Virus record (IMG/VR): IMGVR_UViG_2695420564_000016
Strand: one strand, 5' to 3'
Length of the DNA stretch: 4,519 nucleotides
Origin: a virus
Lineage: Duplodnaviria > Heunggongvirae > Uroviricota > Caudoviricetes
Positions 2,275 through 4,519 of the stretch are shown in pieces. The stretch's first letter is position 1. Each line of letters begins with the position of its first letter. A program made the translations under genes and the position numbers. The notes beneath the pieces are model-generated. The model saw nothing but the letters and a program-made list of their open reading frames with translations. It did no database searches and had not been told where the DNA came from.

Positions 2275-2640
2275 TTTGCGTTCCATCAGATTCAGCAGCG
2301 TGGTGCTGATACGCGCACCGGAACACCCTAGCGGATGACCCAGCGCGATCGCACCACCATTGAGGTTGATCTTCTCGTCAATCTGCTCCATTAGCCCCAG
2401 ATCTTTAATGCACGGCAGGATCTGCGCGGCAAAAGCTTCGTTCATCTCGAATACGCCGATATCGCTGGCAGAAAGTCCCGCTTTTTTCAGCGCCAGTTTT
2501 GAGGCCGGAACCGGGCCGTAACCCATAATCGACGGATCACAACCAACGACCGCCATCGAACGCACACGGGCGCGCGGCTGAAGACCTAATTCACGAGCGC
2601 GACTTTCACTCATCACCAGCATGGCAGCTGCCCCATCGCC
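2275..2640 (-). pseudogene. fadA: Internal fragment of a 3-ketoacyl-CoA thiolase gene (fadA-type), about 120 codons, lacking both ends
   Basis: Minus-strand frame encodes [121 protein letters not shown], nearly identical to the C-terminal domain of enterobacterial FadA as I recall it, including the [19 protein letters not shown] thiolase signature. Similarity stops abruptly after MERK (about 2275) and before DGAAA (about 2640). The N-terminal roughly 250 residues and the final roughly 20 residues are absent. Confidence 0.7.
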
Positions 2641-4519
2641 GGAAAAGGCCACTGTGGTTCCGCTCTGCCCCTCTAATTCGACGCAACGAGATTGCGAACA
2701 CAAGCGCACGCGCAGTCCCACTGGCGTCGGGCCGATAAGCTGATAACGCCATGCCACCTGTGTTATTTCCACGCATAGGTACATCTGGAAACGGAATAGG
2801 TGCTCGCATGTGTTGTGATGGTTTTAAAGTACCTTGATATATAACTTTAACTTCATCATCATCACAAAATATTACTTCACTAAGATCATGAGGAAATCGT
2901 CCCCAACCAACTTCAGCACGATTGATATTATTGCTCTCCGCATGATGTATAAGCAGAGCTTTAGCCGTAAGTGGTGTAATGTTGTAATTTAGAGAAGCAC
3001 TTAACGCGATTGCTTGCCTCAGGACTAATGGAGCTGAAAAGCTAGTCCCCGCAGTGCGGGCAAGACCATTAACCATAGGGCTGTATACCTGGAATGGCTC
3101 ATCAGAATGTCCTCCAAATGCAACTCCATCAGGCTTCACAAAGCCAGGGCTTCGTCCAGGACCAATACAACTGTAAGAACATCTTTCCCAACTATCAGAT
3201 AAAGAGGTTGCTGCACCTACTGACAGACCATTAACTAAATCAGCAGGTGGTTGAATTCGATTTAACTTGGCAGGCAGCTGACCATCATTTCCAACCGCGA
3301 CAGTACAAAGTGTTTCTCCTGATGCAAGTATCTCCTCAAGAGTTGAGGTCCACACATGCACGTCATCGTCATCAACAGGTAATCTAGGTCCTAAGCTCAG
3401 ATTGATATAATCATATTTTTTTTGTTCTAATACACTTTTAATACGGATCAGAACGTCAAAAAGATCGACATCTGAGTTATTAACATTGGAATCCAGTACA
3501 CGATAATGGTCAATATTACAATAAGGAACACTTAATTTTTCCGTTTCAGAGCCAAGAACACCAAATAACACAGTAGAGGTGACATCCTGTCCATGAGAAA
3601 GAAGTTTTGCATTAGTACTAGCATTACCGTTGAAAGTGTACTCTGTTACCCAAGGATTGAAATCATCGATCCCCAATCCACCATCGAATATGGCAACCTT
3701 TATGTGTGGGTTTACCGCTCCTTCAGATGGTAAACTAAGGTTAGATGTTTGAATCACAGAACGTGATATAACAGGCTCACTTAGCCTTAATTCAGGAAGT
3801 TCTCTCAAAGTCCTGAGAAATGAAAACTCTGCAACTTTTAAAGCTACATCTTTACTAGCCTTAATAGGCATAAAGGTTAGCCCCTTAACCTTTATACTTC
3901 TTGCCTTATCTATAACAGCACCATTTTGCGAAGCAAAAACTTCAAAACTATCGACAATAGAGGAACTTGTATCAGGAGTATGTAAGGCGACCTCAATACT
4001 CATAACTTCATTGCTATTAATCGTTTTTACTTTATCTGAAACTTCCAGTATTGAAATATTTTCTAAGGTGACAAAATCATTTTGCTGCCCTTTCGTTAGG
4101 GTATCTTGATTTACAGAATCTAAGAATGATTGAAAACTTTCTTTTTTGCCAGAAACATAAATACACGCTGTAGTGTATTCCTCTTTTCGCCCTCTTTTTT
4201 TAATATCTTTTCTAGGTTTTACTTTTACAGCCTTACTGCCTATGCTTTCTAGGGAAAATCGCTCAAAAAGACTTACTGGAAAATAACTTTTTGCTAAGAA
4301 TGCCGGATGCAAAACAAATTTTGCTACAGCCTTACCTTCAGGCATTGCTAACAATGGAAGGGTATTAATTTCCTCAATCAACTCTTCCAGTTGAGCAGAT
4401 ATCACTGGTTTATTTTCTGAATAAGAGTAAGGTTTATTCTTTTCACCTCCACCTCTGTTAAGTTTAACAGGGTTAGTTAGTGTTTCACCATAGCCAAGAA
4501 GCATATTTTTATCATTCAT
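2606..4519 (-). CDS. Subtilisin-like (S8 family) serine peptidase with a roughly 270-residue N-terminal domain of unknown function and no signal peptide; 3' end reads into compositionally distinct DNA
   Basis: ATG at 4519..4517, exactly at the window edge, so the true start may lie upstream. Catalytic tetrad is intact: Asp in VAIFDGG (about residue 279), His in SHGQDVTST (about 309), oxyanion Asn in INLSLG (about 373), Ser in GTSFSAP (about 493). N-terminus [29 protein letters not shown] is not hydrophobic. DNA from about 2820 to 4519 is visibly AT-rich, unlike the rest of the window. The last 65 or so codons (about 2606..2810) lie in GC-richer DNA and overlap the thiolase fragment in another frame. 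Confidence 0.75.

Follow-up and report, generated by a model that had tools for sequence, protein, structure and literature searches.

The window, by which we mean the whole 4,519-nucleotide stretch of DNA analysed here, is part of the 8451-bp record CCBU01000175.1 of assembly GCA_000940615.1. It is built from a lambdoid prophage segment, from internal pieces of the chromosomal genes lapB, selA, fadA and flhE, and from most of an IetS-like gene encoding an S8 family peptidase, with five joins falling within 780 nt (Table 1). In no E. coli genome do the lambdoid, lapB, selA, fadA, flhE and IetS pieces match one contiguous place; their matches always lie apart from one another. All of the fragments are internal to genes, and neighbouring pieces share only 0-3 nt of sequence at the joins.

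Table 1. Pieces, joins and predicted genes of the window, with the extent of each piece or the basis of its assignment.
Feature	Position	Strand	Remark
Lambdoid prophage early-left (pL) segment	1..1987	-	93-98% identity to several E. coli genomes; Pfam N_peptide
kil	483-635	-	in the pL segment
cIII	620-754	-	in the pL segment
DUF7446 protein	973-1215	-	in the pL segment
N antiterminator	1503-1850, within a longer ORF 1503-1994	-	Pfam N_peptide
Rad52-family recombinase gene, start only		-	in the pL segment; gene calls and Pfam families on the source contig
Internal lapB fragment	1988..2155	+	LapB residues ~238-299 of 389
Internal selA fragment	2156..2263	-	SelA residues ~110-141 of 455
selA/fadA join	2262..2271	.	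N in the public record at window 2262, 2264, 2265 and 2271
Internal fadA fragment	2272..2637	-	FadA residues ~233-366 of 387
Non-native tail of the S8 ORF	2606..2767	-	53 codons and TGA: 43 flhE codons and 10 fadA codons, in the wrong frame
Internal flhE fragment	2638..2767	-	FlhE residues ~54-96 of 132
flhE fragment/S8 gene join	2767..2768	.	three-way comparison of the window, native IetS (BKQWHE) and E. albertii flhE
IetS-like S8 peptidase gene	2768..4519	-	codons 1-584 only; the native gene has 730 codons

In natural E. coli prophages the pL segment forms one unbroken stretch as far as window position 1988, where the matches end; an 83-aa ORF is also found in it. The lapB fragment is 90.5% identical to E. 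coli lapB (NCBIfam LapB, 2.1e-25), and the selA fragment 81-85% identical to E. coli selA over 2158-2263 (NCBIfam selA, 1.2e-07). The thiolase remnant recognised in the initial annotation, which was made from the letters of the window alone, is indeed present and derives from fadA (96.2% identity to the E. coli gene over 2274-2637; NCBIfam fadA, 1.5e-72); that annotation missed the flhE piece between the remnant and the peptidase gene, as well as the selA and lapB fragments beyond it. The flhE fragment shows 90.6% identity to E. coli flhE and 97.7% (128 of 131 nucleotides) to that of the type strain E. albertii NBRC 107761, the sole E. albertii genome compared, which was also the only exact match of a 30-mer from this fragment when one genome per GTDB species was searched. 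Since the flhE fragment matches E. albertii and the core fragments are 85-96% identical to E. coli, the core fragments probably come from an Escherichia albertii-like genome. The Pfam FlhE match (3.8e-19) lies in the ORF 2230-2784 on the minus strand, in a different frame from that of the S8 gene; by chance the flhE and fadA fragments share a frame here, so that a spurious ORF of 184 aa matches the Pfam families for FlhE and for thiolase alike. Gene calls of the source record at 5798-6586 (record coordinates) include products of 140 and 155 aa from the flhE-fadA region. At the selA/fadA join the window carries A where record positions 6179, 6185-6186 and 6188 are N, so that ambiguous bases appear to have been substituted by A in the window sequence.

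The S8 peptidase gene and its break at codon 584

The largest ORF in the window encodes 637 aa on the minus strand (2606-4519). Its product contains a Pfam Peptidase_S8 domain (PF00082, residues 289-540, 2.3e-17) that ends at EVGWG, and motifs at the expected S8 catalytic residues (AIFDGG 276, SHGQDV 308 and GTSFSAP 491), so that the Asp, His and Ser motifs of a subtilase are all predicted to be in place. The best PADLOC match is the IetS profile PDLC02197 (1.6e-46), which the window copy covers from position 27 to 596 of 749. Against NCBIfam IteS_antiphage it reaches 115 bits, the curated equivalog cut-off being 900, a score that refers to the truncated copy of the window and not to the full-length native protein. 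Since this score and that of the partner ATPase described below (221, cut-off 510) fall far under the NCBIfam equivalog cut-offs, the gene is best placed, as judged from profile comparisons, in a divergent IetS-like subfamily, to which it would belong. The gene itself is already known: it is an IetS-like defence gene, annotated as 'S8 family peptidase', and is frequent among the P2-like prophages carried by E. coli, Salmonella and E. albertii. The native 730-aa protein falls in a 90% cluster represented on 618 contigs, with near-identical forms named from the same three taxa. In some E. coli assemblies a gene of this cluster is split at residue 142/143 into partial products of 142 and 588 aa, which a contig break might explain, as might an insertion in a single lineage. 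A natural gene split near the window breakpoint was considered and rejected, because these 588- and 142-aa cluster members are divided at 142/143 and not at 584.

An intact counterpart is present in E. coli BKQWHE, in which the S8 gene (2193 nt, 730 aa, WP_001513122.1) occupies locus coordinates 5560-7752. Directly upstream, and overlapping it, lies an AAA ATPase gene at 7745-8827, so this locus has the IetA-like ATPase directly upstream of the protease in one operon; an IteA-like gene also lies upstream of the S8 gene in the source contig, outside the window. The intact IetA/IetS-like operon of BKQWHE (5560-8827) sits in a P2-like prophage, with the portal gene on one side and DinI-like and replication endonuclease genes on the other, a site which we take to be the variable defence cargo position described for P2-like phages. 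Nucleotides 2768-4519 of the window correspond to 6001-7752 of this locus with 99.94% DNA identity (one mismatch in 1752 nt), and the window protein equals the native 730-aa protein at 584 of 584 residues, with no similarity to native residues 585-730. After residue 584 the native protein continues with CVNLRATFCFSSPVDAEHPL... for 146 residues that are absent from the window copy. The alignment of homologues that the initial annotation proposed as a check bore out its suspicion about the C-terminus, as full-length 730-aa proteins are identical over residues 1-584 and then carry a 146-residue tail unrelated to that of the window ORF. The copy in the window is therefore not a full-length IetS with the complete C-terminal region past the protease domain, its match ending at residue 584 of 730.

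Base-by-base comparison of the window with the native gene and with E. albertii flhE places the break exactly: flhE identity stops at 2767 and IetS identity begins at 2768, a blunt join with no microhomology that coincides with a codon boundary of the S8 frame, directly after codon 584. When 5426 complete E. coli genomes were searched by megablast, each of the 11 best S8 hits listed began at window 2768, with 99.8-99.9% identity. The initial annotation had put the end of the AT-rich segment at about 2810-2820, roughly codon 570, an estimate about 45 nt too far to the right. The displacement is explained by the last 63 nt of the retained native gene, 2768-2830, which are relatively GC-rich (0.44). 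The shift itself from AT-rich to GC-richer DNA near the 3' end of the gene is real: GC content is 0.385 in 2768-4519 versus 0.54-0.61 in the fragments at 1988-2767 (Fisher P = 4e-17), and across about 2750-2875 the values in 50-nt windows go down from 0.56-0.66 to 0.22-0.34. The earlier observation that the AT-rich part reaches just beyond the peptidase domain likewise agrees with the Pfam domain end. Since the native gene continues past codon 584 with a GC content of 0.365, as AT-rich as the rest, the shift in composition is due to the foreign piece; a phage defence gene rich in AT, set beside core-genome fragments, accounts for the jump.

What follows codon 584 in the ORF is out-of-frame chromosomal DNA. 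Apart from a few substitutions, the tail matches an off-frame ORF (489-869) of the E. albertii flhE locus, and the frame terminates at TGA 2606-2608 inside fadA-derived DNA, in keeping with the earlier placement of the stop at 2606 within the thiolase remnant. The unrelated-looking tail had been estimated at about 65 codons, which is too long for the non-native part. The accompanying remark that 2640-2800 matches neither the thiolase nor the AT-rich gene is wrong in both halves of the segment: the part up to 2767 falls in the flhE fragment (2638-2767), and 2768-2800 still belongs to the native S8 gene. Homologues whose C-termini align to the tail had been named as the finding that would count against a replaced C-terminus, and none was present among the 160 cluster members sampled.

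The source record and the origin of the junction

The patchwork extends well beyond the window. At least 13 fragments drawn from unlinked genes make up CCBU01000175.1. Beyond the window, internal stretches of yebC, gcvP, an ankyrin-like gene, ytjB, a glycyl-radical enzyme gene and glpC are present; gcvT-gcvH come next and IetA after them, and the gcv operon and IetA are broken as well. The ankyrin-repeat-like ORF fragment (record 366-590, outside the window) gave a weak NCBIfam AnkX match (E = 0.004), with no E. coli match noted. The IetA-like AAA ATPase (record 3152-3938, gene at 3174-3938, likewise outside the window) lies upstream of the S8 gene and lacks its first 111 residues; it covers positions 112-341 of the 367-position IteA profile, with a score of 221 against IteA_antiphage. 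Its cut is a join with the gcvH-gcvP intergenic region, and NN stands exactly at that join. All 10 N bases of the record fall in three clusters at or within a few nucleotides of joins, namely between glpC and the next piece, between gcv and IetA, and between fadA and selA, for which the chance is about 5e-5 by a rough estimate.

The junction is confined to this record. Among the 5426 complete E. coli genomes none spans it or covers 80% or more of the window, and no phage record in the phage collection spans it. Two junction oligomers, a 32-mer spanning 2767/2768 and a 33-mer spanning 2637/2638, each gave 0 matches in 241 million metagenome records, and CCBU01000175.1 is the sole contig on record that encodes the exact 637-aa product. 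No IS element, integrase, repeat, Rfam element or RNA gene was found at the joins within the window. No mention of CCBU01 or GCA_000940615 was found in the literature searched.

These observations make it very probable that the contig is chimeric and that the 2767/2768 junction, like many other joins in it, is an artefact of sequencing or assembly. Unlinked internal fragments of 100-400 nt are joined bluntly, N bases stand at joins, no mobile-element, repeat or RNA signature was found at the joins of the window and the junction occurs in one record, and together these features argue for a technical chimera; neighbouring segments that are unlinked in related genomes, a junction not reproduced independently and N bases at joins are what a chimeric contig is expected to show. 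We propose that the record concatenates short internal pieces of unlinked E. albertii-like chromosomal genes and two prophage pieces, one being 2.5 kb of the IetA/IetS defence operon of a P2-like prophage and the other the lambdoid pL region. The IetS-like gene would have been cut after codon 584 and abutted to the 130-nt flhE fragment, after which the frame would have stayed open by chance through out-of-frame flhE and fadA sequence as far as the TGA. We infer that the joins were made in vitro or in silico and not in the cell, plausibly through blunt ligation of small fragments during library construction in the former case and through faulty contig merging or gap filling in the latter. The initial annotation had left open whether the native C-terminus was replaced by recombination or insertion or the assembly is chimeric; the C-terminus is indeed missing with foreign DNA following it, and of the causes offered the chimeric assembly is favoured.

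Two observations count against an artefact. Standard assemblers of the de Bruijn or overlap type do not yield joins that are blunt and lack overlap, and the pieces all appear, from their sequence matches, to derive from one genome (E. albertii-like core fragments and prophages), which is also expected from a real intragenomic rearrangement. Two particular technical routes were considered and set aside. A restriction-site or proximity-ligation origin was rejected, as inspection by eye revealed no common recognition site at the five joins, a CCGG near 2639 being 2 nt off. A 10-mer, CATCGAAGCG, occurs at both ends of the lapB fragment, part of it being itself composite, and a 9-mer is shared by the ends of the fadA and lambdoid pieces. 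Such shared 8-10-mers could point to mispriming, template switching or misassembly induced by repeats, but they were treated as chance, permutation with random junction positions giving P = 0.07-0.2.

A real rearrangement in the isolate would have begun with a double-strand break in the prophage defence locus, with end joining capturing several short stretches of chromosomal filler DNA, truncating IetS and fusing it to sequence read out of frame. The blunt joins with 0-3 nt of microhomology resemble those of end joining, and the pieces, judged by the core identities to E. coli and by the flhE identity to E. albertii, could all have come from one genome. The pattern reaches beyond this locus, however, and involves at least 13 unlinked fragments over 8.4 kb, including the breaks in the gcv operon and in IetA; the N bases at joins suggest conflicting sequence data rather than one real molecule, and the junction is in no other sequence searched. 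To our knowledge enterobacteria lack classical NHEJ, and we know of no description of alternative end joining in which four or more fragments are captured serially. We consider such a rearrangement improbable. More improbable still is its fuller form, in which the gcv region and two prophages of an E. albertii-like isolate were broken and then healed by end joining that captured strings of chromosomal gene pieces of 100-400 nt and left a truncated IetS beside a truncated, antitoxin-like IetA; if true, an enterobacterium would here have captured several fragments of filler DNA naturally, perhaps as a result of self-damage by a defence system.

The shift in composition could in principle mark where an AT-rich island acquired by horizontal transfer naturally ends, with prophage cargo standing against core genome, and the S8 gene is indeed AT-rich cargo of a P2-like prophage in E. 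coli. This very improbable reading is refuted by the native locus and the fragment map: the native gene runs for 146 more codons and is then followed by the phage portal gene and not by flhE, whereas in the window the 'core' DNA next to the break amounts to 130 nt from the interior of a gene, with three further unlinked fragments beyond it. An attachment site, intact flanking genes and an integrase, tRNA gene or direct repeats would identify a natural island or prophage boundary, and the junction does not qualify as one, because the break interrupts a coding sequence, the join is free of repeats and RNA genes and the native neighbour is the portal gene. A frame that stays open for 53 codons past the break could also suggest that domain swapping among defence genes gave the protease a genuine alternative C-terminal module. 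Yet the tail derives from flhE and fadA DNA translated out of frame, the cluster members sampled contain no homologue of it, and 53 stop-free codons are unremarkable in GC-rich off-frame sequence. A C-terminal module of this kind is extremely improbable and in practice refuted.

As a chimeric contig, the junction offers nothing new as biology and is almost certainly not a new gene fusion. Its main import is data hygiene. The record has given rise to spurious called proteins, namely the 637-aa 'S8 peptidase' with a junk tail, the product of the 184-aa flhE-fadA ORF and the truncated IetA; these are now in protein collections, where they could pass for domain swaps or pseudogenes, and the whole assembly GCA_000940615.1 is to be treated cautiously.

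Comparison with known systems

The toxin-antitoxin-like anti-phage system ietAS consists of a serine-protease toxin and an AAA ATPase antitoxin, and its defence function needs protease activity through a mechanism that is unknown (PMC13069673). Phage protection that depends on protease activity has been reported for both ietAS and ietHAS systems (PMC13069673). The window gene resembles IetS in carrying the S8 motifs; it also matches the PADLOC IetS profile and, far under the curated cut-off, NCBIfam IteS_antiphage, and the ATPase of the source contig matches IteA_antiphage. It differs from IetAS in that the S8 protein of the window is without its last 146 of 730 residues and the partner ATPase without its first 111, both cuts lying at artificial joins. 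A similar relation holds to the defence hotspot of P2-like prophages between the portal gene Q and the replication region: the native BKQWHE operon sits there, whereas the window is without that phage context and has unrelated fragments in its place.

The closest likeness of the junction as a structure is to misassembled draft contigs, with which it shares unlinked adjacent segments, intragenic breakpoints without mobile elements, N bases at joins and occurrence in one record. It is set apart from an ordinary repeat-induced misjoin by the unusually high density of joins in CCBU01000175.1 (at least 13 pieces in 8.4 kb), which are blunt and do not lie at shared repeats. Such blunt, repeat-free joins favour ligated small fragments or faulty gap filling over a repeat-induced misjoin as the source of the chimera.
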